From Akkermansiaceae bacterium (GTDB taxonomy: Bacteria > Verrucomicrobiota > Verrucomicrobiia > Verrucomicrobiales > Akkermansiaceae), in NCBI GenBank assembly GCA_022510805.1, contig JAFLSS010000003.1:1323-65322 (forward strand): 64,000 nucleotides of DNA. The letters run 5' to 3'. The notes under the pieces are model-generated. The model did not search any database and was not told the DNA's origin. It saw only the letters and a program-made list of their open reading frames with translations. The translations under genes and the position numbers were made by a program. Positions 8,307 through 57,766 of this stretch are shown here, in pieces (position 1 is the first letter of the stretch; each line of letters begins with the position of its first letter).

Positions 8307-8380
8307 TGGGGTGAGCGGCGGGCTGACTGTTTGCTAACAGTCGTGGAAAAGCGGCGCTGATTGCGCGAGAATAGCGGGGT

Positions 8381-8893
8381 ATGAATCCCGAAATCGCTGA
8401 AGCTCTCCACGAGCAAATCCACAAAGAGTTCACCGCCGCCTTCCTTTACTTGTCCTTCTCGGTGCAGATGCGAGAATACGGCTTGCGCGGGGCGGGCAAA
8501 TGGCTGCGTGTGCAGTACCGCGAGGAATGCGGCCACGCTTTGCGCCTGCTGGACTACCTCGACCGGCGGCGAGTCCCGGCACATGTTCCCCGCATTGACA
8601 CCCCGGACTACACGTGGGAAACGCCGCTGGATGTGTTCCGGCTCGCCCTTGAGCACGAGCAGCAGATCACGCAGTCCATCCACACCCTCGCCAGCCTCTG
8701 CTACCGCGAGCAGGACTACGCCACCCTCGCGGAGCTCACGGACTACATCACAGAGCAGGTGGAGGAGGAGAACCAGGTGGCGGATATTGTGGCGGCGCTC
8801 AAGCGCTGCGGAAATGATGCTTCGGCGCTCTTTCAGCTCGACCTGCGGCTCGAAAATGCACGCGATGCGGGCGAAAAAGTGTGGGCGCAATAA
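8381..8893 (+). CDS. ftn: Non-heme ferritin
   Basis: 170 aa. Ferroxidase-centre pattern EF.AA..YL...., REE..HA..L..Y, and QVEEE. Confidence 0.85.
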   Translation: MNPEIAEALHEQIHKEFTAAFLYLSFSVQMREYGLRGAGKWLRVQYREECGHALRLLDYLDRRRVPAHVPRIDTPDYTWETPLDVFRLALEHEQQITQSIHTLASLCYREQDYATLAELTDYITEQVEEENQVADIVAALKRCGNDASALFQLDLRLENARDAGEKVWAQ

Positions 8894-8923
8894 GAAAAAA
8901 CGCCCCGCTGCCCCAATATGCCC

Positions 8924-8951
8924 TTGCATGTGGGCGCAGAAGCATTATAAT
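8924..8951 (+). promoter_or_regulatory. Sigma70-like promoter for the malic enzyme gene
   Basis: TTGCAT (8924-8929), N16, TATAAT (8946-8951), lying 18 nt upstream of the ATG at 8969. The -10 hexamer sits inside the palindrome GCATTATAATGC. Confidence 0.4.
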
Positions 8952-8968
8952 GCAGAGCTTCTGAACTT

Positions 8969-10285
8969 ATGAAAAACACACTGTCGGAACAAGCGCTCAA
9001 CTACCACGAGCAACCGCGCCCGGGCAAGCTGGAAGTGCTGCCCTGCAAATCATGCTTCACCATCGACGACCTCACCCTGGCCTACTCACCGGGAGTGGCT
9101 GAGCCCTGCCGCGCCATTGCGGCTGATCCTGCGGCCGCCGCCCGCTACACCGGCCGCAGCAATCTGGTGGGAGTCATCAGCAATGGCTCCGCCGTGCTGG
9201 GGCTGGGCAATATCGGCGCCGCGGCCTCCAAGCCTGTGATGGAGGGTAAGGGCCTGCTCTTCAAGATTTATGCAGATGTGGATGTCTTTGACATCGAGCT
9301 GGATATCTCCAAACCTGAGACCCTCATCGAGGTCATCAAAACCATGGAGCCCACGTTCGGCGCCATCAATCTGGAGGACATCAAAGCGCCGGAGTGCTTC
9401 ATCGTGGAGCAGCGCCTGCGCGAGGAGATGAACATCCCCGTCTTCCATGATGACCAGCACGGCACGGCGGTCATCTCCGGCGCCGCGCTGCTGAACGCCG
9501 CGCACCTGACCGGCCGCCTGCTGCAGGACATGAAATGCGTGGTCTGCGGCGCGGGGGCGGCGGGGATTGCCTGCGCCAAGTTCTACATGGCGCTGGGTAT
9601 CCGCCGTGAGAATATCTATATGTTCGACTCCAAGGGGCTCATCCACACAGGGCGTTTGGACCTGCACCCCACCAAGGCCATGTTTGCCCAAAGTGAGGAC
9701 TGCACGCTGGAAGTCGCGCTGCAGGGGGCAGATATCTTCCTGGGCCTCTCACGCAAGGGGCTGCTCAAGCCGGAGATGCTGGCCAGCATGGCGCCCTCGC
9801 CCATCATCTTTGCCTGCGCGAATCCCGACCCGGAGATCACTTATGATGAGGCTAAGGCTGTGCGCCCGGACTGCATCATGGGCTCCGGCCGCAGTGACTG
9901 GCCGAACCAGGTGAACAACGTGAGCTGCTTCCCCTATATTTTCCGCGCTGCGCTGGATATGCAGGCGACCACGATCAACGAGGCGATGAAGATCGCGGCC
10001 TCGCGCGCGCTGGCGGATTTGGCTCGCCAGCCGGTGCCGCAGGAAGTGGTGGAGGCCAACGGAGGCGTGGCGCTGGAGTTCGGCTGTGATTATGTGATCC
10101 CCAAGCCTTTTGACCCGCGCATGATCAGCTACCTCTGCCCGGCCATCGCGCAGGCGGCGGTCATCTCCGGTGTCGCGCGCTGCCCCCTGCCGGACATGGA
10201 GGCCTACAAGGCTGAGCTTCAGGCGCGCGTGCGCAATGTGCGCGCCCGCACTCAAACGCTGGTCCACAGCTACCGCGAGGCCTGA
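8969..10285 (+). CDS. NAD(P)-dependent malic enzyme (short form, no PTA domain)
   Basis: 438 aa. [34 protein letters not shown] and the GAGAAGIA Rossmann motif. Confidence 0.85.
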
Positions 10286-10344
10286 TCTCCCTCCCCCCCT
10301 CACCACCCGGCGGCGCCCCCTCCGCACGCGCTGCCGGCACACAG

Positions 10345-10379
10345 CACACGCCCCGGCAGCGGCTCTGCCGGGGCGTGTG
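10345..10379. terminator. Bidirectional hairpin between the convergent malic enzyme and MBL hydrolase genes
   Basis: Perfect 15-bp stem: CACACGCCCCGGCAG (10345-10359) and CTGCCGGGGCGTGTG (10365-10379), with a 5-nt loop. Confidence 0.5.
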
Positions 10380-10408
10380 TTGTGCCAAGGGAGAGCTAGG
10401 GGGGGGGC

Positions 10409-11182
10409 TCAGAGCTGCAGCTCCAGGGAGTCATACGCCGGCTGCATGAAACCCGGCAGCGCCGCCGCCAGCGCCTCGTATTCTACGCCGTGGCCGCTGT
10501 GCGTGACCAAGCCCCGCGCCGGCGCCAGCTCGCGCATGAGCCGCACATTCTCCTCCACAGACAAGTGAGTGCGGTGCGGCGGGTAGCACAAGCCATCCAT
10601 CGCCAGCGCATCCAGGCCGCAGAGCAGCGGGCGCGACTCCGCCGGCAGTTCCTTGATATCCGGCACATAGCCAAAACTCCGCCCCTCGCAGCGGAAGACG
10701 TAGCCAAAGGTCTCCACCCCGGCGTGCAGCACCGGCACGGGCACCACCTCCACCCCGCCCACGCGGAAAGGGCGGCCGCCGTGGCAGCGCGCCTCCGGGC
10801 GCACATAGCCCTTGTAGCTGTTGGATTCATCAAACGCCCAGGCAAACATGCGGCGCAGGGCAGCCAAGCAGCCCTCCCCGGCATAGACAGGCAGGCGGGA
10901 CTCCCGGTGCCAGCAAAAGGCGCGCAGCTCATCAAAACCGGCTGTGTGGTCCAGGTGCTCATGCGTGTAGAGCACAGCATCCACGGCCGTGATCTCATGG
11001 CGGAGGGCTTGGAGGCGCAGATCCGGGCAGGAATCCACCAGCAGGCGCACCCCGCCGGCCTCCACCAGCACTGAGGAGCGCAAGCGCGTGTTGCGTGGAT
11101 TGGGAGACACACAAACCTCGCATTTGCAACCAATTACGGGCACACCGGTGGAGGTTCCGCTGCCGAGAAAAAGTATCTTCAT
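10409..11182 (-). CDS. MBL-fold metallo-hydrolase (PhnP-like)
   Basis: 257 aa. N-terminal GSGTSTGVP with a CxC..C cluster, and the HEHLDH metal motif. Confidence 0.75.
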   Translation of the reverse strand: MKILFLGSGTSTGVPVIGCKCEVCVSPNPRNTRLRSSVLVEAGGVRLLVDSCPDLRLQALRHEITAVDAVLYTHEHLDHTAGFDELRAFCWHRESRLPVYAGEGCLAALRRMFAWAFDESNSYKGYVRPEARCHGGRPFRVGGVEVVPVPVLHAGVETFGYVFRCEGRSFGYVPDIKELPAESRPLLCGLDALAMDGLCYPPHRTHLSVEENVRLMRELAPARGLVTHSGHGVEYEALAAALPGFMQPAYDSLELQL

Positions 11183-11250
11183 GCGCCGTTTAGGGGTTGA
11201 TTTCCGGCGGCATTATGCCATAATAGCGGCGCAACGAAAAGCGAAAAAAT

Positions 11251-12909
11251 ATGCTCGCGCACCTCAAGATACGCAATCTCGCCCTGGTGGATGAACTGGA
11301 ATGGGAGCCGCACGCCGGGTTCCTGGGCATCACCGGTGAGACAGGTGCCGGCAAGTCGGTGATCATGGGCGGCATCTCCCTCGCGCTGGGAGACAGGGCA
11401 GACAAGAGCATGATCCGCAGTGGCGAGACGCAGTGCTCCCTCGAGGCTCTTTTCACCCTCCCCCACCCGGAAGAGCTCAACCGCCGCCTCGAGGAAGCCG
11501 GCGTGCCCCCGTGTGAGGACGGGCAGCTCATCATCCGCCGCATCATCACCCCCACGGCCAATCGCCAATTTATCAACAGCACCCCTGTCACCCTCAACCT
11601 CCTGCGCCAGATCAGCAGCGGGCTGGTCGACATGCACCACCCGGAGGCGCACCGCTCCCTCACTTCCCAGGAGAGGCAGCTCGCGCTGCTGGATGCCTTT
11701 GCAGAGGCGGACACGCAGCGCGAGGCCTACACTACTGCCTACCGCGCCTGGCAAGAGGCGCGCGCCGCCTACCGCAACCTGCTGGAGAGTGAGGCGGCCA
11801 ATGAGCGCGAGCTGGATTTCCTGCGCCACCAGGTGGAAGAGATTGAGAGTGCCCACCTCACAGCGGCAGAGGCGGACAGCCTCGAAGAGCGCTGGCAGCG
11901 CGCGCGCAATTCGACCCGCCTGCGCGACACGGCGCTGCCCATCGCCGCCGCGCTGGAGGCAGATGAGCAGAGCCTCTTGCCGCGGCTGCGCCAAGTCGTG
12001 CGCCACGCGCGCGAGCTCGAGCGGCTCGATGCCGCCTGCGCCACCTGGCTTCAGCCGCTTGAGGAGTGTGTGGAGGCGCTGAGCGAGGTGGCGGCCAATG
12101 CTCAGGATTATGTGGCGGATCTCTGCACTGACCCCGCCGAGCTCGCGGAGCTTGAGGAGCGCATCAGCACCCTCGATACCCTCAAGCGCAAATACGGGGC
12201 AGAGGTCGACACCATCCTCCGCCACCTTGAGGACTGCCGCGCCAAGCTGGCCAATATCGAGCACCGGGATGAGCGCCTGGCGGAGCTTGAAGCGGCGCAG
12301 CAAGCGCGCAAGGCAGATGTGCTGCGCGCCGCGGCTGCCCTGAGCTCCGCCCGCCGCAAAGCAGCCCCGCGGCTCGAGAAGAGCTTTCTCACCCACGCGG
12401 CGCACCTGGGTTTCCGCCAAGCGCACTTCAGCGCGCAGCTCACCCCCGCGGCAGAGCCCGGCCCCCACGGGGCAGAGGAGGTGGAGTTCCTCTTCGGCCC
12501 GAATCCCGGTGAGCCGCTCAAGCCCCTGCGCCACATCGCCTCCAGCGGTGAGCTCGCGCGGGTCATGCTTGCCCTCAAGAGCGCCCTCGCCAAGCAGGAC
12601 GACACGCCCCTGCTCATTTTTGATGAGATTGATGCCAACGTGGGCGGCGAGATTGCGCGCGCCGTGGGCCGCAAGATGCTCGAGCTCGGGCAGGATCACC
12701 AGGTGATCGCCATCACCCACTTCCCGCAGGTGGCCGCCCTGGCAAACCACCACTACCTCATCTCCAAGCAGACAGAGGGCGGGCGCACCGTGTCGCACCT
12801 CCATGAGGTCTGCGGTGAAGCGCGGGTGAGTGAGCTCATGCGCATGCTCGGCACCACCGGGCCCACCGCCCGCGCCCACGCGCAGGAGCTCCTGCAGAGC
12901 GGCAGCTGA
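11251..12909 (+). CDS. recN: DNA repair protein RecN
   Basis: 552 aa. N-terminal Walker A (GETGAGKS), a long coiled coil, and the C-terminal signature SGGELARVMLALK plus the Walker B segment LLIFDEID. Confidence 0.9.
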   Translation: MLAHLKIRNLALVDELEWEPHAGFLGITGETGAGKSVIMGGISLALGDRADKSMIRSGETQCSLEALFTLPHPEELNRRLEEAGVPPCEDGQLIIRRIITPTANRQFINSTPVTLNLLRQISSGLVDMHHPEAHRSLTSQERQLALLDAFAEADTQREAYTTAYRAWQEARAAYRNLLESEAANERELDFLRHQVEEIESAHLTAAEADSLEERWQRARNSTRLRDTALPIAAALEADEQSLLPRLRQVVRHARELERLDAACATWLQPLEECVEALSEVAANAQDYVADLCTDPAELAELEERISTLDTLKRKYGAEVDTILRHLEDCRAKLANIEHRDERLAELEAAQQARKADVLRAAAALSSARRKAAPRLEKSFLTHAAHLGFRQAHFSAQLTPAAEPGPHGAEEVEFLFGPNPGEPLKPLRHIASSGELARVMLALKSALAKQDDTPLLIFDEIDANVGGEIARAVGRKMLELGQDHQVIAITHFPQVAALANHHYLISKQTEGGRTVSHLHEVCGEARVSELMRMLGTTGPTARAHAQELLQSGS

Positions 12910-12992
12910 TGCCCTGCCCACCCCCCGCAGCGCGCGCCCCCCTCCTCCACCTTGTTTTGATGACTCGGCGCCGCGGCCGCGTCTCACCCTGC

Positions 12993-13271
12993 ATGCACCA
13001 GCCCTACAGCATCATTACCGGCGTGGCGGCAGCAGCGCTGCTCACGGCAGGCCTGCAGCAAGCCCCTGCCCTCACCATCAACCTCGGCCGTGGCAGCGAG
13101 TCCTCCGCTCATCACGCACGCGACTACCGCCGAGAGCGCGCCCCCCGCCGCCACTATGAGCACGAGCGGGAGCGGGACTCCTCCTCGCTCGAGCGCGATA
13201 TACGGCGCGTCATCCACCGCCGCAGCGACTCGCGCCCGGAGCCACCGCCGCCCGGCCCCCGGCGCCGCTAG
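12993..13271 (+). CDS. Possible small secreted Arg/Glu/His-rich protein
   Basis: The ATG at 12993 gives MHQPYSIITGVAAAALLTAGLQQAPA (signal-like), followed by a highly charged RE/H-rich tail. An antisense ORF of equal length exists (12984..13274), so coding is uncertain. Confidence 0.25.
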   Translation: MHQPYSIITGVAAAALLTAGLQQAPALTINLGRGSESSAHHARDYRRERAPRRHYEHERERDSSSLERDIRRVIHRRSDSRPEPPPPGPRRR

Positions 13272-13295
13272 CACCCACCACCGGCGGGAGACGCC

Positions 13296-14279
13296 TCAGA
13301 GCGCCTCCACCAGCTCCAGCCCCAGCTCCTCGAGCTTGGCCATGTCGGCCGCGATCCCGGCGCCGGGGATAGTGAGGTAATTACCGGTCATGAACGCATT
13401 AGCGCCGGCAGCAAACATCTCATACTGCCGCTCCTTGAGCACACTCACGCGCCCGCCGCAGATACGCAGAGTCGCCTCCGGCAGCAGGTGGCGGAACAAC
13501 GCCACAATCCGCAGCGCCTCCTCCGGCGGCATCACCGGCTGATTCGCCAGCGGAGTGCCGGGGTGCGGGTAGAGGAAATTGATCGGGATATTGCGGATCC
13601 CCTCACGCTTGAGCTCCAGGGCAAACGTGATGCGGTCCTCCCAGCTCTCACCCAAGCCGAACAAGCCGCCGCAGCACACCGAAAGCCCATGCTCCTGCGC
13701 CTGATGCACCGTATCCAAACGGTCGCGCCAGGTCTGAGTCGTACACACATGGGGATAAAAACTCTCACAAGTCTCCAGATTGTGGTGCAGGCGCGTGAGC
13801 CCCGCCTGCTTCAGCCGCTCCAGCGCGCGGTCCTTGAGGCGGCCGAGAGAGCCGCAAATCTGCGGGCGCTTCTTGCCGGAGGCCAAGTGCTTCTCAATAA
13901 AGAGCGCCAGCTTCTCCACATCGGCATCCGTGAGCGCCCCGCCGGAGGTCACCACCCCGCAGCGCCCCACCGGGAAAGGCTGCCAGCCCTCCACAATCTC
14001 CTCCAGCTGCTCGGAGCTCATGAACGGGTAGCGCTCAATCTCTGTGCTGTTGAATCCACTCTGAGAGCAAAAGCGGCAGTTCATATTGCAATTACCACTC
14101 TTGGCATTGATGATGAAACACGCCTCCACGCGGCGGCCGAAATAAAACTCACGCAGCTGAGTCGCGCCGGCAAAAAGCTCTGCCTCCGGCAGCTCCACCA
14201 GAGCCCGCGCCTCCTCGCGGCTCAGCCCCCCATTCTCCACAGCCGATTGTGCATACGTTGTCATAACACGGCGCATCAT
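13296..14279 (-). CDS. bioB: Biotin synthase
   Basis: Radical-SAM motif CNMNCRFCSQ with BioB-like full length. The start is ambiguous among 14321, 14279, 14276 and 14264. Confidence 0.85.
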   Translation of the reverse strand: MMRRVMTTYAQSAVENGGLSREEARALVELPEAELFAGATQLREFYFGRRVEACFIINAKSGNCNMNCRFCSQSGFNSTEIERYPFMSSEQLEEIVEGWQPFPVGRCGVVTSGGALTDADVEKLALFIEKHLASGKKRPQICGSLGRLKDRALERLKQAGLTRLHHNLETCESFYPHVCTTQTWRDRLDTVHQAQEHGLSVCCGGLFGLGESWEDRITFALELKREGIRNIPINFLYPHPGTPLANQPVMPPEEALRIVALFRHLLPEATLRICGGRVSVLKERQYEMFAAGANAFMTGNYLTIPGAGIAADMAKLEELGLELVEAL

Positions 14280-14348
14280 ACCACGCACCGGGGGGCTCTG
14301 GCAAGCCTCATGTGGAACCAAGCGCGCGCCGCCGCCTATTAGCTGCCC

Positions 14349-14378
14349 TTGACTTGGGTGGGGTGGTGGTGGTATAGT
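14349..14378 (+). promoter_or_regulatory. Sigma70-like promoter abutting the amidase start codon
   Basis: TTGACT (14349-14354), N18, TATAGT (14373-14378). The ATG at 14385 lies only 6 nt after the -10 hexamer. Confidence 0.35.
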
Positions 14379-14384
14379 ACGGCT

Positions 14385-15290
14385 ATGATAGGACGACTGC
14401 TACTGAGTTGTTTGACGCTGGCGCTGATGTGCTGCGCGCAGGTGCCCACACGCGGGGAGATGCACGGGCCGGTGGTGCTTGATATCGGCCACTTTATCGG
14501 CGGGGATGGCGCGCAGACCCCGAGCCCGGTGCGGGGCAAGGTGATCACTGAATGCACGTTCTGGTACCAATATGCGGCGGAGGTGAAGCAGGTGGTGCAG
14601 GCGGCCGGGTATGACTGCACGATTGTGAACCGCGGGAACGCGCCCACGAAGGAGCCGCTGGCCGGCTATGCCCGCCGCGCCGGGGTGGTGCATCTGCAGC
14701 GGCCGGATGTGAATGCAACGCGCTATCCCTCACGCTACTTTGCAGACCGCGTGGCCTCGGGTATGGTGAGTGCTGATTATGCTATCTCACGCCGGGCGGC
14801 GTGCATGGTGTTCCTGCACCACAACAGCACCTCCTCGCGCTGGACAAGCGGCGCCTCCCCCAGTATGGTGCTGTGCAATAAGTTCAACGGGCGCACGCTG
14901 GCGGAGTGTTTGTGCCGCGCGCTCAATACGGAGATCCTGAACCACGGCATGCCCAATGGCGGGCGCGAGTGCCGGCCGGAGGTGAGCTGTGTGGATGCGC
15001 AGCGTGCGGCGGGCTGGCTGAATGCGTGTGATGATGCGGGGATTCCCGCGGCGGTGATTGAGGCGGCGTTTCTGAACAACCGCGCTCACGCTGAGTTCTT
15101 GGCGCAAGATGCCCAGGCGCGCCGCTATGCGCAGACAGTGGGGCATGGTATTGTGGCCTATCTGCGGGCACACGGGCACGAGCCGCGGCACGTGCGCGCT
15201 AACCCGGATGTGCCGGATCAGGGCTCTTTCGGCTATGCGGCGGAGTCACGCCGCCTCAAGGTGCCCGGGGCTAAGCGCCTGCTGCCGTAG
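14385..15290 (+). CDS. N-acetylmuramoyl-L-alanine amidase family (Amidase_3) lipoprotein
   Basis: Lipobox-like MIGRLLLSCLTLALMCCAQ. Zn-ligand pattern LDIGH...E...FLHHNS...IEAAFLNN. Confidence 0.7.
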   Translation: MIGRLLLSCLTLALMCCAQVPTRGEMHGPVVLDIGHFIGGDGAQTPSPVRGKVITECTFWYQYAAEVKQVVQAAGYDCTIVNRGNAPTKEPLAGYARRAGVVHLQRPDVNATRYPSRYFADRVASGMVSADYAISRRAACMVFLHHNSTSSRWTSGASPSMVLCNKFNGRTLAECLCRALNTEILNHGMPNGGRECRPEVSCVDAQRAAGWLNACDDAGIPAAVIEAAFLNNRAHAEFLAQDAQARRYAQTVGHGIVAYLRAHGHEPRHVRANPDVPDQGSFGYAAESRRLKVPGAKRLLP

Positions 15291-16179
15291 CAAGGGCTTG
15301 GCGCATGGGCTCTATCTCCGGCAGCCGGCCAAACCAGTGCTCAAACGCCAGCGCCCCCTGCCAGAGGAGCATGCTCCGCCCACCCGCCGCAAGACACCCC
15401 CGCTCTGCCGCTGCGCGCAGCAGGGGGGTGGGGTGGGTGATGAGGTCATAGACAGCGGCGCCGGCATGCAGCATTTCCGCCGGGAGCGGCAGGGGATCTG
15501 CCGCAGTGAGGCCGAGGCTGGTGGCATTCACGACTAGGCTGGCGCCGGCCACAGCGGCGCGGAGGCCGGCGGTGTCCGCAAAGCTCAGCGCGCGCAGGGT
15601 GGCGCCGGGGCGGCAGTGGGGCTGCAGCAGCTCGAGCATGGCGCCGAGCTCCGGCCGGGGGCGGTTCACCAAGGTGAGGCAGGGGCAGCCGGAGAGCACG
15701 CACTGCGCGGCCAGGGCAGCGCCGGCGCCGCCGCAGGCGCCGAGCAGCACGATGCTGCGCTGCGCGGCCAGGCCGCAGCCGCAGAGCTCATGAATGGCGC
15801 GCTCAAATCCGGGGCCATCGGTATTGTAACAGGCTGTTTTCTCGCCGCGGAAGACGAGCGTGTTTGCCGCGCCGCAGAGGCGGGAGAGGGGATCTGCCTC
15901 ATCTGCCAGGGCGTAGGCCTGTTTTTTGAATGGCACAGTGACATTGGCCCCCACAAATTGCGCCCGGCGCAAGGCGGAGATGAGGGCGGGGAAAGCGCCC
16001 TCCTCCCGCTCGCAGAGCAGGCGGATGTAGGAGTGCGGGAGGCCGGCGGTGTCGAGAGCGGCCTGCTGCATGGGTGGCGAGACCGAGTGGGCGATGGGGT
16101 TGCCCACCACGCCCAGCCGCGCCCGCGCAGGCAGAGCACCGGCCGCCAGATCAGCGGCTGTGTAGTACGGGGGCTGCAT
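15271..16179 (-). CDS. aroE: Shikimate dehydrogenase
   Basis: The start MQPPYY at 16179 overlaps the yajC stop (TAATG). Motifs GNPIAHSVSP, NVTVPFK, NTDG and GAGGAG are present. The listed 512-aa ORF is an upstream over-extension. Confidence 0.85.
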   Translation of the reverse strand: MQPPYYTAADLAAGALPARARLGVVGNPIAHSVSPPMQQAALDTAGLPHSYIRLLCEREEGAFPALISALRRAQFVGANVTVPFKKQAYALADEADPLSRLCGAANTLVFRGEKTACYNTDGPGFERAIHELCGCGLAAQRSIVLLGACGGAGAALAAQCVLSGCPCLTLVNRPRPELGAMLELLQPHCRPGATLRALSFADTAGLRAAVAGASLVVNATSLGLTAADPLPLPAEMLHAGAAVYDLITHPTPLLRAAAERGCLAAGGRSMLLWQGALAFEHWFGRLPEIEPMRQALATAAGA

Positions 16180-48855: not shown

Positions 48856-48879
48856 TGGCTCCTCCCCCACCCCTTCCGT

Positions 48880-49236: not shown

Positions 49237-49366
49237 GCCGGCCAGCCGCAGCCCTGCCAGGCTCAGGCCAAGCCCCGCCACCCGGCCCCGCGCCCGCGCG
49301 CACCGCGGGTGAGCTGCCCCGCCGCCGTGTTTTCTCCGATTCCATGGTTGCCAGCTCCCCCTCAAT

Positions 49367-51592: not shown

Positions 51593-51618
51593 CCCACCAC
51601 TCCACACACACACACGCC

Positions 51619-52557
51619 ATGTCCGCCACCCCCACCTCCTCGCGGGTTACAGCCGGCGCCCAGCCCACGCTGGAATACGCTCTGCCACCCGGCCACTCCC
51701 TGCGCGGCTACCGCATCCTGCACACCATCGGCGCGGGCGGATTCGGCATCACCTACCTCGCAGAAGAACCCACCACCCACCGCCGCGTGGTGCTCAAAGA
51801 AAACTTCCCCGCCTCACTGTGCTACCGCCGGCCCGACTCACCGGAAGTGCTGCTCAACCCCGCAGACTCGGCAGAATCCTCCTTCGCCTGGGCACACAAC
51901 AACTTCATGCGCGAAGCACGCCTCCTCGCCTCACTCCATCACCCCCACATCGCCAAGGTCTACACCTTTTTTGAAGCCTACAACACCTCCTACTACGTCA
52001 CCGAACACATAGCGGGCCAGCCCCTCGCAGAAGTCGCCGCCGCCCACGCACAGCTCGGCCAGCTCCTGCCCCAAGCCGGCCTGCTCGGCACCCTGGTGCG
52101 CGTGCTCGACGCGCTGGACTACATCCACTCCCGCGACCTGCTGCACCGCGATATCAAGCCAAATAATATCCTCATCCGCAAAAACGGCCTGCCCGTGCTC
52201 ATCGACTTCGGCGCCGCGCGCGACGCCTGCGGCGATGCGGATCCCAACGTGGTCGAATCCCTCGGCTTCAGCCCGGCAGAGCAAGGCAACTCCGGCAGCG
52301 ACAACATGGGCCCGTGGACAGATCTCTACTCCCTCGGCGCGACTCTCTACTACATCACCACCGGCCAGCCGCTCCTGCCCTGCCGCCAGCGCGAGCTCTA
52401 TGACACGGCAGATACCCTCTCCGAACTCCCCGAGCTGCTCGCCGTGTATGACAAAGTATTTCTGGCCACCATCGACCGCGCCATCCGCCCCATCATCGCC
52501 GGTCGCTTTGCCAGCGCGGCCGAGTGGATTGCTGCTCTGCGCCCCCTCTTTGGCTGA
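51619..52557 (+). CDS. Serine/threonine protein kinase (kinase domain only)
   Basis: GAGGFGITY, VLKE, HRDIKPNNIL and DFGAAR. Confidence 0.8.
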   Translation: MSATPTSSRVTAGAQPTLEYALPPGHSLRGYRILHTIGAGGFGITYLAEEPTTHRRVVLKENFPASLCYRRPDSPEVLLNPADSAESSFAWAHNNFMREARLLASLHHPHIAKVYTFFEAYNTSYYVTEHIAGQPLAEVAAAHAQLGQLLPQAGLLGTLVRVLDALDYIHSRDLLHRDIKPNNILIRKNGLPVLIDFGAARDACGDADPNVVESLGFSPAEQGNSGSDNMGPWTDLYSLGATLYYITTGQPLLPCRQRELYDTADTLSELPELLAVYDKVFLATIDRAIRPIIAGRFASAAEWIAALRPLFG

Positions 52558-52663
52558 ATTTCAGCCCTCCCAAGGCCATTTTTTCAGAGTTCAATACAAA
52601 GAACTGCAAAAATGACCAGATAATGTCTTGACCTAACGCATTTTATAAGGCATCATAAGCGAC

Positions 52664-55231
52664 ATGAGAGCGCGCCCACTGCACTGGTCATCTGCATTCG
52701 TTTCAACCTGCATGGTTATCGCATCCCTTTCTTCTGTGTCAGCCCAGCAGTCGACAGGTGATGCATACTTGGATTCCATCCTGAGTAATCAATTTGACAA
52801 CAACACCGAGCAACAAGCTGAGGCAGAATCCTCCGCCTCCAAGGCTCCCACACCCAAACCCCAACTCATCGACACCGCACACGACACCAGACTGGTGGAT
52901 GACGCGGTGGCCCTGCGTGAGCTTGGCGCCTCCACCGGCCTCGGCCTGCTGGGCGGCCCGGCCAATTATGACGGCCTCGTGGTGCAGAGCGTAAGGATCC
53001 GCTACACCTCCGGCAAACCCACCGTGCCCGACCAGCGCCTGCTGGATGTCATCCAAACCTCCCCCGGCTCCCGCTACTCCTCCTCACGCATCAATGATGA
53101 CCTGGAGCGCCTCATGGAAAAAGGGCTCGTGAGCGGTGACGCCCGAGTGGCTGTGGCGCCTCAGGGTAGAGGCGTGAGTGTCATCTTCGAGGTAGCGCCC
53201 GCCAGCGTGATGGGCGGTGTCGGCTTCACCGGCAACCGCAGATACAGCGACAAAAAGCTGCGCGAAACCACAAAACTCCTCTCCAGCAAGGTCATCAATG
53301 ACCGCGCCCTCGCTGCGGCACGCGCAGAAATCATCCGCCTCTACCAAGAGGCCGGCTACCCGGATGTCAAAGTCTCCTGGCGCCACACCAAAACCGCCCG
53401 CACCGGGTATGATGACATCATCTTCGACATCCAAGAAGGCCGTGAGGTGCGCATGATGAACATCAAGTTCACCGGCAACCGCCAGTTTGACTCGAAGCAG
53501 CTGCGCCAGATGATGAAAACAGAAGAGCGCGGGCCCTTCCACCTCCTCACCAACTCCGGCCGCGTCATCCGCGAACAGCTCGATGACGACCTTCAGGAAA
53601 TCATCCGCCACTACCGCAACTACGGCTACCTGCGCGCCCGCATCGCCAAAGTCGAATTCATTGACAGCGGCAAACCGAACGGCCCCCAGAAGCTCACCAT
53701 GATCACCCACATCGACGAAGGCCCGCGCTACCGCGTGCGCCACGTCAGCTTCAGGGGCAACACCATCTACAAATCCAAAGAGCTCGAGCCCGGCATGAGC
53801 ATGCTGGATGGTGATGTGTACTCCCTGCAGAAAGTCTCTGATGACACCACCATGATCCGCCGCTACTACGGCGCCAAAGGCTATGCTGACGCCGACGCCC
53901 GCCCGGATATCAACGAAGTCGGCGTGGATAAAGACGGCACACGCGTCATCGACATCTGCTACAACATCACCGAAGGAAAACGCTACGCCGTGGGCCGTGT
54001 CAATGTGCGCGGTAACACCAAAACCAAGCGCCACGTCATCCTCCGCGAGCTCCCCCTCAAGCCCGGCCAGAACATGAACTCTGTCGACTTGGAAACCGCC
54101 AAGAAACGCCTTGAAAACCTCGGCTACTTCGCTGGCGTAGATGTTTCTCAAGCCGCCTCCGACCGCGCCGGCTACCGCGATATCAACGTCACCGTGCATG
54201 AGCGCATGACCGGCAACCTCACCGTGGGTGCCGCCATCTCCTCCATCGAGAGTGTCTACCTGTATGCCAACGTCACCCAGTCGAACTTCGACGTGCGCGG
54301 CCTCTTCGGCAGCGGCTCACTGGTGGGCGGCGGCCAGCGCCTCTCCATCTCCGGCAAGCTCGGCTTCGACTTCCAGAGTGCATCCATCAGCCTGCTCGAG
54401 CCCTGGTTCCTGGACCGCAAGCTCGCCCTGGGCAATGAGATCTACTTCTCGAACTCCTCCTACTTCAGCGATTACTACGTGCAGAAAAACTACGGCTACG
54501 CCGTGTCCCTGCGCCGCGCTCTCGATGAGAAAAACTCCGTCAAACTCGAGTACCGCATCGAACACTACAACCTGACTCCCCAAGGTGCCGCCCCGCTCTA
54601 CTTCCTCTACAGCTGCGGCGACTACAACCGGAGCAACATCAATCTCGCGTACGAGTTCGACTCGCGTGATGCCATCATCAACCCGCGCAAGGGTGGCAAC
54701 TTCGAGGCCCACATCGGCTACAGCGGCCCCGGCAGCACCATCCAAACCTACAGCGCCGGCATGAGCGGCTCCGTCTACTACAACTCCATCTGGGATTCCA
54801 TCCTCAGCCTCAACTTCGGCGTAGAAACTGTCGACTCCGTGAAGAAAGACGAGATGGTGCCCATCTTCGAGCGCTGCTACCTCGGCGGCCCGATGAACCT
54901 GCGCGGCTTCCGCTTCCGCGACGTCGGCATGATCGACGAGCGCATCACGGGTGATGAAACTATGGGCGGCAACTCCTCCGCATTCGTCCAGGCAGAAGTC
55001 ACCATACCCGTGGTAGAAACAGTTCGATTCGCCATGTTCGTGGATGCCGGCTTCGTGCACGAAGACTCGTTCGACTTCGGATTCAACAGCATCTCCGCTG
55101 ACTATGGTATCGGCCTGCGCATCAACCTGCCCATGGGCCCGCTCGCCGTAGACTACGCCATCCCGTTCAAGATCGGCAATGCTGTTGACCGCGACGGCCA
55201 ATTCCAATTCTACGTAGATTACAAATACTAA
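52664..55231 (+). CDS. bamA: Outer membrane protein assembly factor BamA
   Basis: 855 aa with a signal peptide, repeated POTRA segments, and a C-terminal Omp85 barrel ending in FYVDYKY. Confidence 0.9.
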   Translation: MRARPLHWSSAFVSTCMVIASLSSVSAQQSTGDAYLDSILSNQFDNNTEQQAEAESSASKAPTPKPQLIDTAHDTRLVDDAVALRELGASTGLGLLGGPANYDGLVVQSVRIRYTSGKPTVPDQRLLDVIQTSPGSRYSSSRINDDLERLMEKGLVSGDARVAVAPQGRGVSVIFEVAPASVMGGVGFTGNRRYSDKKLRETTKLLSSKVINDRALAAARAEIIRLYQEAGYPDVKVSWRHTKTARTGYDDIIFDIQEGREVRMMNIKFTGNRQFDSKQLRQMMKTEERGPFHLLTNSGRVIREQLDDDLQEIIRHYRNYGYLRARIAKVEFIDSGKPNGPQKLTMITHIDEGPRYRVRHVSFRGNTIYKSKELEPGMSMLDGDVYSLQKVSDDTTMIRRYYGAKGYADADARPDINEVGVDKDGTRVIDICYNITEGKRYAVGRVNVRGNTKTKRHVILRELPLKPGQNMNSVDLETAKKRLENLGYFAGVDVSQAASDRAGYRDINVTVHERMTGNLTVGAAISSIESVYLYANVTQSNFDVRGLFGSGSLVGGGQRLSISGKLGFDFQSASISLLEPWFLDRKLALGNEIYFSNSSYFSDYYVQKNYGYAVSLRRALDEKNSVKLEYRIEHYNLTPQGAAPLYFLYSCGDYNRSNINLAYEFDSRDAIINPRKGGNFEAHIGYSGPGSTIQTYSAGMSGSVYYNSIWDSILSLNFGVETVDSVKKDEMVPIFERCYLGGPMNLRGFRFRDVGMIDERITGDETMGGNSSAFVQAEVTIPVVETVRFAMFVDAGFVHEDSFDFGFNSISADYGIGLRINLPMGPLAVDYAIPFKIGNAVDRDGQFQFYVDYKY

Positions 55232-55267
55232 TCTACCCACCCACCCACAACAAACCATCATACAGCG

Positions 55268-55319
55268 CCTGCTGTGCCGGAACACCCGCCTCAAGCGGAC
55301 ACGGCACAGCAGGTTTTTT
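55268..55319 (+). terminator. Rho-independent terminator of bamA
   Basis: 12-bp stem CCTGCTGTGCCG (55268-55279) and CGGCACAGCAGG (55302-55313), followed by TTTTTT. Confidence 0.7.
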
Positions 55320-55523
55320 ATACCTACCCCCTGCCCCGGACCATACACCACCACCACACCCACCCCAAACAAGCCAGAAAGCGCCTACAACGCCACAGAA
55401 CCACCCGCAGCCTATAGATACCGCAGAACCACCCACCAACGCGCAGGAAAAGCCCCCTGAGAGCCTACAACGCCACACCACACCCGCACACGACACACCC
55501 ACACACCCGAAAACAAAAAAAAG

Positions 55524-55698
55524 CCGCTGTGCCGTCAGCAGTATGGAAGCCACGTTCCCTAAAGCTAGGTGGGTGCGGAGCCGGGTTTACCTGAGGTATC
55601 CACTGAAGGACGGAACATGAAACCCTGAGCTTTGATGCCCCTTGTGATATTATAACGGTCCGGGCCTATGATACCGCGTGTCACGAGCACAGCAGCGC
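55524..55698 (-). ncRNA. Candidate structured small RNA of about 175 nt (rod-like, possibly 6S-like); identity unknown
   Basis: Minus-strand promoter: TTGCCA (55732-55727), N17, TATGTA (55709-55704). The predicted 5' end GCGCUGCUGUGCU pairs over 11 bp with the 3' end GGCACAGCGGC, which is followed by U8. Further 5'/3' arm pairings exist (GUAU/AUAC, AGGCC/GGCUU). No credible ORF. Confidence 0.35.
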
Positions 55699-55782
55699 AT
55701 ATATACATACCATATCCCCCGCGGCCTGGCAAGCCCTTTTTCCGCCATACTACTATCAATTAGACAACAAAACCGGCGCAAA

Positions 55783-55799
55783 TGTTCCACATGGAACAA
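55783..55799. repeat. 17-nt palindromic motif TGTTCCACATGGAACAA, copy 1 (upstream of argS)
   Basis: Exact 17-mer, also present at 57634-57650. It ends 27 nt upstream of the argS -35 hexamer. Confidence 0.9.
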
Positions 55800-55825
55800 A
55801 GTGGTATTTCTTTTCCTGTGTAAGA

Positions 55826-55854
55826 TTGACAAAAAGCAGATAAACGTGTATAAA
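55826..55854 (+). promoter_or_regulatory. Near-consensus sigma70 promoter for argS
   Basis: TTGACA (55826-55831), N17, TATAAA (55849-55854), lying 12 nt upstream of the ATG at 55867. Confidence 0.5.
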
Positions 55855-55866
55855 TGGAGAGCTTTT

Positions 55867-57630
55867 ATGACTATTCCAGCACTATTATCCGACCAGGTTG
55901 CACAGGCTTTTCGCGCTATTTTAGGTGATTCACTGCCGGAGGGTTTCTGCCCTGTTGTATCCGCCTCACAAGATTTGCGCTTTGGCGATTACCAGTGCAA
56001 CGCCGCCATGATTCTTGCCAAGCAGGTAAAAATGAACCCGCGAGAACTCGCCGGCAAGGTCGTAGAAGCGCTGCGCGCCTCCTGCTCACAGGCTATTCCT
56101 GAGATCGCCGGGCCCGGCTTCATCAATTTCCGCATCAACGCTGCGTATTATGCAGAGCGCATGAAAAGCATGCTCGGGGATGAACGCCTCGGTGTGCCGC
56201 TCGCTGCAGAGCCCAAGTCCATCGTCATCGACTTCTCTGCTCCCAATGTGGCCAAGCCCATGCACATCGGCCATATCCGCTCCACGATCATCGGCGACAC
56301 GCTTGCCCGCCTGGCGCGCTTCATGGGGCACACGGTGATCACTGATAACCACATCGGCGACTGGGGCACGCAGTTCGGCATGATTCTCTGGGGCTGGAAA
56401 CACCTTCTCAACCAGGAGAATCTCGCCAAGGATCCCATCGAAACCCTCCTCTCCGTCTACAAGGAGGTCAATAAACTCTGCAAGGAATCACCCGATCTGC
56501 TGGTCGATTGCAAAGCCGAGCTCGTGAAGCTGCAGGGCGGTGACCCCGAGAATCTGAGCATCTGGAAACGCTGCGTCAGCCTCACTCAATCCGGCCTTGA
56601 GAAAATCTACGAACAGCTGGATATTCACTTCGATTACTGGCTCGGCGAGAGTTTCTACAATGATGCCCTCGAGCCCCTGGTAAATGACCTGCTGAACAAA
56701 GGCATCGCCCGCGTGAGCGAGGGCGCGGTGTGCGTGTTCTCTGACGGCTTCCACAAGCCGCAGCAGGACCCCTTCCTCGTCAATAAAGATGGCGAGTGGC
56801 AGCCGGTGCCGGCCATTATCCGCAAGGCAGATGGCGCATTCCTCTACGCCACCACAGATCTGGCCACGCTGGATTACCGCATCGCCCACTTCAATGCTGA
56901 CTCGATCTGGTATGTGGTGGGCGCTCCGCAGGACAAGCATTTTAAGCAGATTTTTGACATCGAGCGCATGCGCGGCGTGCAGGGTGACTTCCGCCACGTG
57001 GCGTTCGGCTCCATCCTCGGTCATGACCGCCGGCCATTCAAGACGCGTGATGGCGAGACCGTGAGCCTGCAAGATGTCATCGACGAAGCCATCCAGCGCG
57101 CCACCCGAGTCATCGAAGAAAAGAGCCCCGACATGCCGGCAGATGAGAAAGCACGCATCGCGCGCATGGTAGGTGTCGGCGCCGTGAAGTTCGCTGAGCT
57201 CTCCCAAAACCGCCTCAGTGATTACATCTTCGACTGGGACAAGATGCTCGCCCTCACCGGCGATACCGCGCCCTACCTGCAGAACTCCTACGTGCGAGTC
57301 AAATCCATCTTCCGCAAACTCGAAGAGGGAGAATATACACCCGCCGCTGCAAGCCCGGAGCTTAGTGAAGATGCAGAAATCCACCTCGCGCGCCTCCTCG
57401 CGCGCTATGCTGAGATCGTGCCCTCCACACTCGATGACTGCCGCCCGAATCTCCTGGCGGCCTACCTGTACGAGCTGGCGCGCGCATTCCACAGCTTCTA
57501 TGAAGCTTGCCCCGTGCTCAAGAGCTCGGGAGATACCCGCACCACGCGCCTCAGCCTTTGCGACCTCACAGCCCGCGTCCTCAAGCAGGGCATGGGACTG
57601 CTCGGCATCGAAATGCCGGATCGTATGTAA
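55867..57630 (+). CDS. argS: Arginine--tRNA ligase
   Basis: ATG at 55867 (MTIPALLSDQV...). Class-I HIGH variant (PNVAKPMHIGHIRS) and a C-terminal DALR anticodon-binding domain ending in IEMPDRM. Confidence 0.9.
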   Translation: MTIPALLSDQVAQAFRAILGDSLPEGFCPVVSASQDLRFGDYQCNAAMILAKQVKMNPRELAGKVVEALRASCSQAIPEIAGPGFINFRINAAYYAERMKSMLGDERLGVPLAAEPKSIVIDFSAPNVAKPMHIGHIRSTIIGDTLARLARFMGHTVITDNHIGDWGTQFGMILWGWKHLLNQENLAKDPIETLLSVYKEVNKLCKESPDLLVDCKAELVKLQGGDPENLSIWKRCVSLTQSGLEKIYEQLDIHFDYWLGESFYNDALEPLVNDLLNKGIARVSEGAVCVFSDGFHKPQQDPFLVNKDGEWQPVPAIIRKADGAFLYATTDLATLDYRIAHFNADSIWYVVGAPQDKHFKQIFDIERMRGVQGDFRHVAFGSILGHDRRPFKTRDGETVSLQDVIDEAIQRATRVIEEKSPDMPADEKARIARMVGVGAVKFAELSQNRLSDYIFDWDKMLALTGDTAPYLQNSYVRVKSIFRKLEEGEYTPAAASPELSEDAEIHLARLLARYAEIVPSTLDDCRPNLLAAYLYELARAFHSFYEACPVLKSSGDTRTTRLSLCDLTARVLKQGMGLLGIEMPDRM

Positions 57631-57633
57631 TTT

Positions 57634-57650
57634 TGTTCCACATGGAACAA
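57634..57650. repeat. 17-nt palindromic motif TGTTCCACATGGAACAA, copy 2 (4 nt after the argS stop)
   Basis: Identical to 55783-55799. Confidence 0.9.
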
Positions 57651-57654
57651 TTAT

Positions 57655-57700
57655 CAGCCCTGCTTCATTATCTGAAGCAGGGCTGTATTTGTATTGTGTT
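57655..57700. terminator. Bidirectional Rho-independent terminator (argS and the outer membrane protein gene)
   Basis: 13-bp stem CAGCCCTGCTTCA (57655-57667) and TGAAGCAGGGCTG (57673-57685), followed by a T-rich tail. Confidence 0.7.
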
Positions 57701-57766
57701 TTGTTCGCGTTGGCAGGTGCAGCGGCGCTCTCAGCGCAGGAGGGCGCCGCGCTCTGCACAGCTGCA

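Follow-up and report, generated by a model that had tools for sequence, protein, structure and literature searches.

A probable replication origin upstream of ribD in a mosaic of strand skew in an uncultured Akkermansia-like bacterium

The oriC basal unwinding system, which comprises DnaA boxes, DnaA-trios and an AT-rich unwinding element, was defined in Bacillus subtilis and is predicted widely (PMC8287927, PMC6669920); its generic pattern is a box, a spacer of at most 16 bp and at least three NAN triplets (PMC8287927). Clusters of parS sites together with a skew shift are an accepted means of locating origins, and an adjacent dnaA is not required (PMC10197239). Chromosomes of Akkermansia muciniphila are rearranged even between strains at 97.6% ANI, which are already two inversions and 200-kb rearrangements apart, and the study of strains MucT and H2 described a prophage-like, integrase-bearing insertion of 50 kb and another, of 40 kb, with low G+C (PMC9415379).

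Here we analyse 64,000 nucleotides of a contig from an Akkermansiaceae bacterium (the window). An earlier note had described in it a 49-kb block, 8,307-57,766, with GC skew opposite to both flanks, and had offered two readings: a recent inversion of the block, or an oriC at its right-hand border with the left flank as a separate rearranged or acquired segment. On balance, we favour the view that the window is origin-proximal chromosome of an uncultured Akkermansia-like gut bacterium, in which an origin upstream of ribD lies within a mosaic of skew. The closest ArgS match among 185,579 species genomes is 79% identical, and the top matches are nearly all metagenome-assembled Akkermansia or Akkermansiaceae.

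The second of these readings survives in substance, since the locus has a conserved DnaA-box cluster with a GAT repeat and an AT tract, parS-like sites, and, in most Akkermansia species, the skew polarity of an origin. The position near the right-hand switch also stands; the candidate, however, is not the spacer between argS and the outer-membrane-protein gene but the spacer upstream of ribD, 1.6-1.9 kb further right. Its elements are the following.

59,318-59,608: candidate oriC, an AT-rich 291-bp spacer from a hypothetical gene (58,697-59,317) to ribD, with five DnaA-box-like sites, a GAT repeat and an AT tract
59,352-59,372, minus strand: two DnaA-box-like sites, TGTCAATAA (59,352-59,360) and GGTGAATAA (59,364-59,372), one mismatch each to TGTGAATAA, in columns conserved in the alignment
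59,387-59,395, minus strand: DnaA box without mismatch, read as TTATCCACA on that strand; no other perfect match occurs in the 64-kb window
59,488-59,504, plus strand: tandem overlapping DnaA-box-like sites TTATTCACT / TTATTCACA
59,510-59,542, plus strand: GATGATGATGAA trinucleotide repeat (59,510-59,521), then an AT-rich tract; candidate DnaA-trio and unwinding element

The spacer has 43-44% G+C in 300-bp windows, versus about 63% around it. TGTGAATAA is the reverse complement of the genus consensus box TTATTCACA, and besides the perfect box the same 291 bp contain four one-mismatch sites. No element of the spacer is more highly conserved than the second tandem box, ACTTATTCACA (47 species). 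The GATGATGATGAA repeat starts 5 bp past the tandem boxes, with which it forms the published box, spacer and NAN-triplet pattern (PMC8287927). GATGATGATGAATTT is almost invariant among species in the 47-sequence alignment, and the order of boxes, GATGATGATGAA repeat and AT tract is kept in the 47 aligned Akkermansia sequences. When 62 spacers were compared (61 Akkermansia loci and the window), they were mostly 250-360 bp long with 29-37% G+C, and most contained one to six box-like sites. They contained 6.36 DnaA boxes per kb, roughly 23-29-fold over background. The remainder of the loci, 1.24 Mb flanking the spacers, had 0.22 per kb, spacers after shuffling had 0.28, and other windows with less than 40% G+C had 0.43. 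No dnaA, dnaN or parAB was found within the 74 kb examined. The genes and parS-like sites beside the spacer are listed below.

55,783-55,798: parS-like palindrome of 16 bp, TGTTCCACATGGAACA, upstream of argS and one mismatch away from the genus consensus TGTTCCACGTGGAACA
55,867-57,630, plus strand: argS, arginine-tRNA ligase (NCBIfam TIGR00456, E 7e-154; 587 aa), with parS-like sites on both sides
57,634-57,649: second parS-like palindrome, 4 bp past the argS stop codon
57,767-58,390, minus strand: outer-membrane beta-barrel protein gene (Pfam OMP_b-brl), plus-strand GC4 skew +0.44
58,697-59,317, plus strand: hypothetical 206-aa gene, always adjoining the origin spacer
59,609-60,655, plus strand: ribD, to the right of the spacer (NCBIfam TIGR00326, E 3.5e-77), GC4 skew +0.35

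The genus consensus TGTTCCACGTGGAACA differs from canonical parS, TGTTTCACGTGAAACA, by two mismatches. The form TGTTCCAC(G/A)TGGAACA occurs at 55,783 and 57,634, with no other copies in 73.8 kb. All 80 Akkermansia argS loci contain the motif (293 sites; at least two sites in 73 loci), control loci elsewhere in the genomes (223 kb) contain none, and 84% of the mapped sites are found left of the spacer, no more than 10 kb away. The hypothetical gene, which has no match in Pfam or NCBIfam, remains linked to ribD in 62 of 80 argS-centred loci despite scrambled surroundings. In the argS/outer-membrane-protein spacer we found, besides the parS-like palindrome, two GC-rich hairpins that by eye resemble convergent terminators; the apparent skew switch is displaced 1.7 kb leftward to this place by the minus-strand outer-membrane-protein gene, because its coding strand is strongly C-rich at fourfold sites.

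Of 51 species, 43-47 show a rise in skew across the ribD spacer: when g58568 and ribD are left out, GC skew of the right 6 kb exceeds that of the left 6 kb in 43, and keto skew does so in 47 (P about 1e-5), counts that overstate independence because the 51-80 species are phylogenetically related. The right-hand excess is seen in all three classes of gene arrangement, and the skew of argS depends on which way the gene points with respect to the spacer (P 0.003). Where relatives have the commonest arrangement, mean skew on the right is near zero, not positive. Taken together, these observations suggest that the spacer upstream of ribD is probably the replication origin.

We recounted the nine hand tallies of G and C behind the earlier note, and each agreed to within one count. 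Pooled over the plus strand, 1-8,306 has a GC skew of +0.150, 8,307-57,766 of -0.071 and 57,767-64,000 of +0.067, and both proposed borders are genuine change points in binary segmentation of the G/C walk, at 8,387 (z 8.1) and 57,585 (z -9.7). When an equally large block of genes was placed by 48 circular shifts across the window, the contrast between flanks and block was largest for the original partition. The central tallies, however, were -0.025 to -0.078 on 190-314 G+C, each at most about 1.1 binomial standard errors from zero, and the uniform negative block dissolves into four internal segments (-0.08, +0.055, -0.09, -0.19), as seen from the segmentation.

1,433-8,387: left positive-skew segments, +0.27 to 5,176 and +0.10 after
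8,387-14,351: weakly negative segment, -0.076; ftn, maeB, MBL hydrolase, recN, bioB
14,351-29,259: positive or neutral segment inside the claimed negative block, +0.055; amiC, aroE, yajC, tgt, trmB and others
29,259-57,585: negative segment, -0.09, then -0.19 from 43,775
57,585-62,074: short positive segment over the origin candidate, +0.13, ending inside mfd
62,074-64,000: negative skew resumes, and goes on to at least 73,796 on an identical contig

The strongest change point of the whole window, 29,259 (z 15.5), falls within a 1,947-aa gene; the earlier note, which sampled the block at four spots only, missed this. At fourfold sites the genes of 14.4-20 kb have GC skews between +0.14 and +0.58, and two opposite-strand genes at 1,856-3,554 have plus-strand GC4 skew of +0.78 and +0.80. 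The left part is discordant as several blocks rather than the one separate segment that had been proposed. The right flank is positive for the 4.5 kb of 57,585-62,074, but from inside mfd it is negative or neutral: on a metagenome contig that is identical to the window over 13,381 bases and extends it by 9.8 kb, mean skew is -0.069 over the 11.7 kb of 62,074-73,796. Origin-type positive skew is not sustained rightward. With the extension included, a three-block model explains 17% of the variance of the keto index and a multi-block model 56%.

Gene orientation does not account for this profile, as the earlier note had held. By itself, orientation accounts for 7.5% of the variance between genes in keto excess (G+T excess at fourfold-degenerate sites). 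With orientation removed, the lag-1 autocorrelation of neighbouring genes is 0.62, a value reached in none of 20,000 permutations, and adjacent opposite-strand genes are correlated at r = 0.61. The block structure is genuine and independent of orientation. In the genes of 43.9-52.6 kb, G versus C and T versus A move jointly in the keto direction, and such a joint shift is typical of replication asymmetry. At fourfold sites of 43.9-55.2 kb the plus strand is C-rich and A-rich together, with a keto index of -0.38 to -0.50; the composition of 29,259-57,585 is that expected for the lagging strand left of an origin.

Could the pattern instead be gene-scale compositional noise, set by codon usage, amino-acid content or expression level and unrelated to replication, with the DnaA- and parS-like motifs serving the promoters of ribD and argS as regulatory sites? 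At fourfold sites the average coding strand is C-rich (orientation coefficient -0.13, R2 0.18), strongly so in rpsI, the outer-membrane-protein gene, fucI and recA; G-minus-C falls 5' to 3' within genes (slope -0.093 per kb, P 1e-10), a gradient kept among orthologues (argS, 77 of 80); and four of the eight change points fall within genes or an operon. A single origin switch at 59.46 kb explains essentially none of the between-gene fourfold-site keto index in this genome (R2 0.001, versus 0.56 for the multi-block model). Against an origin here, too, positive skew extends only about 2.5 kb to the right of the candidate before the 11.7 kb of negative or neutral sequence, and about 19 kb to its left has the wrong sign (1.4-8.4 and 14.4-28 kb). 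With eight change points in 74 kb, we estimate that in about one case in five any given site would by chance have one of suitable polarity less than 2 kb away. Noise, however, would not produce the correlation between neighbours, including those on opposite strands, and the keto shift of the 43.9-52.6 kb genes is unlike the bias of fucI, which is pyrimidine-ending. Nor would a promoter need the DnaA-box enrichment, a conserved GAT repeat with an AT tract, or 2-9 locus-confined parS-type palindromes, and skew polarity about the spacer is steady across species with differing flanking genes. We therefore consider this explanation unlikely.

A second possibility, which we also judge improbable, is that the discordant blocks are not in-place inversions but homologous-recombination imports, or horizontally acquired DNA, from relatives whose genes are oppositely oriented to replication. 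Recombination tracts, unlike inversions, could have the intragenic borders seen in mfd and the 1,947-aa gene. The window's left end varies between strains and has a low G+C content (a GmrSD-like gene of 44% G+C, with a different gene there in another strain), two tyrosine-recombinase genes are present (22,550-23,650 and 63,949-64,989), and opposite-skew insertions of 40-50 kb are reported in A. muciniphila (PMC9415379). The discordant blocks, however, hold housekeeping genes (tkt, sdaA, aroE, yajC, tgt, trmB) of normal 60-66% G+C, and the changes within genes match the general 5'-to-3' gradient common to orthologues.

The remaining alternative, one recent inversion of about 49 kb (8.3-57.7 kb) in one replication arm with the skew of the former orientation retained, would fit the pooled opposite sign, the two change points, the top-ranking partition and the frequency of inversions in Akkermansia, but it is highly improbable given the mixed signs of the block (negative, positive, negative, negative) with its strongest change point inside a gene, the 4.5-kb right flank, which leaves no consistent outer polarity for the block to oppose, and the origin-type locus at the right border, which explains the sign change there without an inversion. 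No inverted repeat pairing the two borders was found, and the window has no tRNA genes. Gene order was identical in every strain-level assembly recovered, on independently assembled contigs from at least three samples; these include a 72-kb contig that by coordinates should span the whole window and of which 19.8 kb and 20.5 kb were read, both collinear. The block is thus not an assembly artefact, and the feature is very probably not one 49-kb inversion.

We return to an origin upstream of ribD within a mosaic. DnaA would bind the TTATTCACA/TTATCCACA box cluster in the spacer and next open the neighbouring GAT repeat and AT tract. The parS-like palindromes around argS, 1.7 and 3.5 kb to the left, would be the loading sites of ParB. 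The C- and A-rich plus strand of about 29-57.6 kb would be the lagging strand of the leftward replication arm, and the opposite composition of ribD and the 3' half of mfd would be that of a leading strand. Since origin and lagging-strand composition would account for the skew, the 49-kb "block" would be neither a unit nor one inversion. The remaining sign changes (8.4, 14.35, 29.3 and 62.1 kb) would form a mosaic, most likely caused by frequent local rearrangement together with gene-intrinsic composition: blocks that were inverted or relocated may keep the skew of their former orientation, and C-rich coding strands and the 5'-to-3' fall of G-minus-C may add to this, the latter accounting for sign changes inside long genes. 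Between species, recA, the FMN reductase gene and a kinase/acyl-ligase pair swap side and strand about the spacer, some relatives have local inversions of argS, bamA and the outer-membrane-protein gene, and gene order beyond pairs or operons is not kept at about 70% amino-acid identity, nor at 84-91%. Because none of the relatives found is close enough to show any single block un-rearranged, we infer the rearrangement history of each block, like origin firing at the spacer in this genome, from what was directly observed: the motifs, with their conservation and confinement to this locus, the polarity of skew among species and the scrambling of gene order.

The candidate resembles a B. subtilis-type oriC in that its AT-rich spacer holds TTATCCACA-type boxes in both orientations, in that 5 bp separate its tandem boxes from a run of at least four NAN triplets (GAT GAT GAT GAA), beyond which is an AT tract, and in that it lies at a negative-to-positive change of GC skew with parS-like sites near. 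Unlike that type, it has no dnaA/dnaN neighbour within 74 kb, its preferred box is TTATTCACA, and the predicted origin has origin-like flanking skew only locally; the candidate DnaA-trio reads 5'-GAT-3' on the strand of the TTATTCACA box and could run with or against the published 3'-GAT-5' consensus. The parS-like sites share with canonical parS (TGTTTCACGTGAAACA, bound by ParB/Spo0J) a 16-bp palindrome, with two symmetric mismatches (TGTTCCACGTGGAACA), and several intergenic copies confined to a few kb by the candidate origin in every species examined. They differ in that both copies in the window have a central CA instead of CG, making them imperfect palindromes, and in that they are predicted sites in a window that carries no parAB genes. 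Compared with the blocks of A. muciniphila MucT and H2 (PMC9415379), those of the window consist of housekeeping genes of normal G+C, with no un-rearranged comparator among the relatives recovered. In both cases, however, within the same genus, GC skew runs opposite to the surroundings in blocks of 5-50 kb and rearrangement is frequent even among close strains, and a patchwork of skew beside a probable origin is an ordinary kind of feature.

An earlier note on this DNA, based on nine hand tallies of G and C, had described a block at 8,307-57,766 whose GC skew was opposite to that of both flanks, and had explained it either by an inversion of about 49 kb or by a replication origin at the right-hand switch. 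All nine tallies were reproduced with a difference of at most one count, and pooled GC skew was +0.150 for 1-8,306, -0.071 for 8,307-57,766 and +0.067 for 57,767-64,000. More structure than three blocks, however, appeared in a sliding profile of 2-kb windows and in a binary segmentation of the G/C walk, the latter continued for 9.8 kb to the right of the window on an identical metagenome contig (73.8 kb together). Change points fell at 1,433, 5,176, 8,387, 14,351, 29,259, 43,775, 57,585 and 62,074, of which 29,259, inside a gene for a 1,947-aa protein, was the largest (z 15.5).

GC skew of the segments between change points
1,433-5,176: +0.27
5,176-8,387: +0.10
8,387-14,351: -0.08
14,351-29,259: +0.055
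29,259-43,775: -0.09
43,775-57,585: -0.19
57,585-62,074: +0.13
62,074-73,796 (into the extension): -0.07

Both proposed borders are genuine change points (computed at 8,387 and 57,585). The block between them, however, is not uniformly negative, because a 15-kb positive stretch lies between the four points that the note had sampled, and positive skew in the right flank ends after 4.5 kb (57,585-62,074), where the sign turns negative. The borders, the tallies and the regional asymmetry were thus borne out, while the single uniform block was not.

Two parts of the window stand out in other respects. At 1856-3554, two adjoining genes on opposite strands have a plus strand extremely rich in G and T at fourfold-degenerate sites (GC skew +0.78 and +0.80, AT skew -0.66 and -0.87), far above the rest of the window; they encode a 293-aa protein with a by-eye likeness to a DNA alkylation repair enzyme (no family match) and a 260-aa secreted hypothetical protein. 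At 23881-32584, three successive minus-strand genes (537, 1,947 and 414 aa) have no Pfam match; the 537- and 414-aa proteins have no NCBIfam match either, the 1,947-aa protein having been scanned in Pfam only.

The window was placed on metagenome contigs by exact-protein look-ups. A 64-kb contig is identical to it over 13,381 bases and reaches coordinate 73,796, where the sequence examined ends; a 72-kb contig from a second sample should, by its coordinates, cover the whole window, and 19.8 kb and 20.5 kb of it were read. The 31.7-52.3 kb stretch is collinear in contigs from at least three samples, and the sdaA/ferritin or the ferritin/malic-enzyme junction is present in at least eight contigs. 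Agreement among several independent assemblies excludes a chimera as the cause of the pattern, and the contig is correctly assembled. Among 185,579 species genomes, ArgS has no match above 79% identity, the best matches being nearly all metagenome-assembled Akkermansia or Akkermansiaceae; the source is an uncultured, high-G+C (~63%) relative of Akkermansia.

Strain differences were seen at two places. The left end (40-1674 and upstream) looks like a strain-variable defence islet: it carries a GmrSD-family restriction-endonuclease-like gene of low G+C (44%), which is replaced by a T5orf172/DUF4268 gene in another strain, and most assemblies break nearby. In one sample the assembly of 35600-41700 breaks at ~35.6 and 41.06 kb, the gap being bridged by a separate 8.8-kb contig; 40.4-41.7 kb is low in G+C and holds a small gene of unknown function whose strand and length (150 or 190 aa) differ by strain call.

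The earlier note had also held the asymmetry to be independent of gene orientation and of a replication type. We called 48 genes in the window and 8 to 10 in the extension, and measured skew at third positions and at fourfold-degenerate sites; the signs were the same at both, which rules out amino-acid composition as the source of the third-position skew. On average, coding strands carry more C than G (orientation coefficient -0.13), and orientation alone accounts for only 7.5-18% of the variance. With orientation removed, neighbouring genes correlate at 0.62, a value reached in none of 20,000 permutations, and neighbours on opposite strands at r = 0.61; in the genes of 43.9-52.6 kb, G/C and T/A move together. 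A regional asymmetry of replication type, independent of orientation, stands, but as a mosaic and not as one block: of the variance in the keto index (G+T excess), a multi-block model accounts for 56%, the three blocks of the note for 17% and a single switch at 59.46 kb for 0.1%.

A recent inversion of about 49 kb should have produced a uniform reversal between flanks of consistent polarity. The region instead consists of four inner segments of mixed sign, and the polarity on the right is gone after 4.5 kb. Both borders are short spacers, and no inverted repeat links the one at 8.3 kb to that at 57.7 kb; across the whole window only short, imperfect G+C-rich matches were found, none joining the borders. 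The window has no tRNA gene and no match to an Rfam family, including no FMN riboswitch upstream of ribD. Every strain-level assembly keeps the gene order of the window, with no alternative arrangement in any strain, and the next relatives in the species-genome and metagenome collections (ArgS at most 79%, RecN ~70%) are too divergent or rearranged for any single breakpoint to be tested. Given this lack of uniformity, the absence of terminal repeats, tRNA genes and Rfam elements, and the one arrangement in all strains, a single inversion is not supported. A search of the 73.8 kb for the 28-bp XerCD site dif found nothing that credibly matches the site of E. coli, B. subtilis or Caulobacter (the best, inside bamA, had 8 of 28 mismatches), so that no evidence points to a terminus here.

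The alternative, that the right-hand switch marks oriC, fared better, at a site slightly displaced from the switch.

Features around the right-hand switch
55,783: parS-like palindrome
55,867-57,630, plus strand: argS
57,631-57,766: spacer of 136 bp between convergent genes
57,634: parS-like palindrome
57,767-58,390, minus strand: outer-membrane-protein gene
58,697-59,317, plus strand: hypothetical gene, here g58568
59,318-59,608: spacer of 291 bp, origin candidate
59,609-60,655, plus strand: ribD

The argS/outer-membrane-protein spacer itself is not origin-like, having two hairpins and a parS-like palindrome but no cluster of DnaA boxes. Origin-like motifs, their conservation and cross-species skew point instead to the non-coding spacer upstream of ribD, 1.6-1.9 kb further right, where G+C falls to 43-44% in 300-bp windows. 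It contains five DnaA-box sites with at most one mismatch (to the box TTATCCACA or a species variant), one of which is the only perfect box of the window, the other four having one mismatch each. The tandem boxes TTATTCACT/TTATTCACA are followed after 5 bp by GATGATGATGAA and then by an AT tract (59,496-59,542 from TTATTCACA onward). This layout fits the search pattern for a basal unwinding system, in which three or more NAN triplets stand no further than 16 bp from a box (PMC8287927), the fit being judged by the triplets irrespective of their polarity against the 3'-GAT-5' consensus.

We then compared 80 Akkermansia loci fetched around argS, in 61 of which the hypothetical gene and ribD flank an equivalent spacer. 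Together with that of the window, these 62 spacers are mostly 250-360 bp long, with 29-37% G+C, and most have 1-6 box-like sites, a 23-29-fold enrichment over background.

DnaA-box-like sites per kb
62 spacers: 6.36
Rest of the loci: 0.22
Shuffled spacers: 0.28
Other AT-rich windows: 0.43

An alignment of 47 sequences, each from a different species, has about eight conserved box positions, and its best-conserved part is the nearly invariant ACTTATTCACA-(5)-GATGATGATGAATTT with the AT tract. In a subset of Akkermansia species (loci L020, L028, L031, L033, L050, L051, L055, L057, L063, L064, L066, L070, L072 and L080) the spacer is ~1 kb long as against ~300 bp, and in some it has two to four perfect DnaA boxes, a pattern suggestive of inserted or duplicated sequence inside the origin region. 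Over the whole window, box-like 9-mers with at most one mismatch number 17 against 5.35 expected (~3-fold); three lie inside bioB (13,750-14,241), the only non-coding cluster being that upstream of ribD.

Genes for dnaA, dnaN, gidA and parAB are absent from the window and the 9.8-kb extension. Origins away from dnaA are documented, and dnaA is not always at the origin (PMC10197239); a dnaA/dnaN neighbourhood is thus a non-essential feature. Origins of gut bacteria, A. muciniphila among them, have been placed by a parS cluster together with a skew shift (PMC10197239). Here, argS has a 16-bp palindrome, TGTTCCACATGGAACA, on either side, one copy after the gene and the other upstream at 55,783; the 73.8 kb contain no further copy, and both of these lie within 3.7 kb of the origin candidate. 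TGTTCCACATGGAACA differs by three mismatches from the strict parS consensus TGTTNCACGTGAAACA and by one from the form found in the genus, TGTTCCACGTGGAACA, which itself has two mismatches to canonical parS, forming one symmetric pair. All 80 argS loci contain such sites (293 in total, at least two copies in 73 loci), Akkermansia-type control loci taken from elsewhere in the genome, 223 kb in all, have none, and 84% of the mapped copies are within 10 kb of the spacer on the g58568 side. Judged by sequence, these palindromes would be parS sites, being 16 bp long, near the consensus, clustered at the candidate origin and rare elsewhere. The window has no parB gene.

Skew across the genus has the direction expected of an origin. 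With loci oriented from g58568 to ribD and divided into 2-kb bins on either side of the spacer, skew is negative in 75-84% of loci for the five bins on the left and positive in 76-77% for the two nearest bins on the right. A comparison of 6 kb on each side, leaving out the two flanking genes, gives a higher GC skew on the right in 43 of 51 species and a higher keto skew there in 47, counts that are not independent because the species are related; the difference holds in all three classes of gene arrangement. Third-position skew of argS is -0.14 where the gene points toward the spacer, and -0.08 and -0.04 where it is co-directional with a fork leaving it (P 0.003). In this genome the local switch of the right polarity is at 57,585, 1.7 kb from the spacer, and positive skew extends to its right for only ~2.5 kb. 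Motif, conservation and cross-species skew support 59,318-59,608 as a candidate oriC, and an uncultured Akkermansia species probably has its replication origin and parS cluster on this contig. No description of an Akkermansia oriC was found in the literature searched.

An origin leaves much of the local pattern over. On the ribD side of the spacer, positive skew is confined to ribD and the 3' half of mfd and gives way to negative skew in the 5' half of mfd, a tyrosine-recombinase gene and the fucose operon; on the other side, the sign at 1.4-8.4 kb and at 14.4-28 kb is the opposite of that expected from an origin. A change point falls within each of tkt, the 1,947-aa gene, mfd and the macA-macB operon, and none of these four can be an inversion breakpoint. 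Part of the leftover skew is probably intrinsic to genes. In window genes of at least 400 codons, coding-strand third-position G-minus-C skew declines along the gene from its 5' end, by 0.093 per kb (P 1e-10), a profile repeated in orthologues regardless of genomic context (loci L003-L082; argS 77 of 80, bamA 5 of 5, mfd 4 of 4), with the reverse gradient in 55 of 66 ribD genes. The gradient could come from transcript position or from domain-specific codon choice. The coding strands of rpsI, the outer-membrane-protein gene, recA and fucI are strongly C-rich, which would reflect high expression; this C-richness accounts for an apparent switch at 57.6 and not at 59.4 kb. The remainder is attributed to blocks that would retain the skew of an earlier orientation, the relatives found being too distant to show such a block before rearrangement.

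Gene order around the spacer is unstable. Between species, recA, the FMN reductase gene and a kinase/acyl-ligase pair are found on opposite sides of the spacer and on opposite strands, the expected product of origin-spanning inversions; argS, bamA and the outer-membrane-protein gene are locally inverted or moved in some species, and elsewhere only gene pairs or operons are kept (MBL hydrolase with recN, the fucose operon). Order is poorly conserved at ~70% amino-acid identity and likewise at 84-91%; a search with the fucose isomerase found a 91%-identical representative in another Akkermansia genome. Strains of A. muciniphila at 97.6% ANI are two inversions and 200-kb rearrangements apart, and carry 40-50-kb insertions of opposite skew (PMC9415379).

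Mobile or shifted genes were also noticed nearby. Tyrosine-recombinase paralogues, weakly matched by XerC/XerD models, lie at 22550-23650 and 63949-64989 (the latter partly past the window, on contigs L091 and L128); the second adjoins mfd, ahead of a lower-G+C stretch at 64-67 kb with two small genes of unknown function, with which it may form a small integrated element. A gene for a 247-aa hypothetical protein follows ribD directly as a tandem duplicate in many Akkermansia species (L004-L080), and here, at 65617-66360, is separated from it by mfd and the recombinase gene, which suggests that an insertion or inversion brought this pair to the right of the origin in this clade.

Taken together, we tentatively propose, with somewhat less than even confidence, that the Akkermansia origin may be a fixed module away from dnaA, made up of the hypothetical gene, a ~300-bp spacer with a GAT repeat and many DnaA boxes, and ribD, with 2-9 variant parS sites around argS on one side. 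This module would be nearly the sole conserved item among genes that swap side and strand, a turnover that would have left the first tens of kb on both sides, in this high-G+C species, as a patchwork of very strong but mutually discordant strand asymmetry. Skew switches in metagenome contigs serve to flag origins, termini, inversions and misassemblies, and reading the true switch described here as a single inversion would put it in the wrong class. Should the origin call be right, and the origin previously undescribed, peak-to-trough estimates of growth rate and reconstructions of genome rearrangement would gain a sequence-level anchor in an important gut genus. A known origin locus would help in orienting and checking metagenome-assembled genomes, in reading coverage-based estimates of Akkermansia growth, and in studying how often rearrangements occur close to the origin. 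The mechanisms involved (DnaA/oriC, ParB/parS and skew remnants after rearrangement) are all well known.
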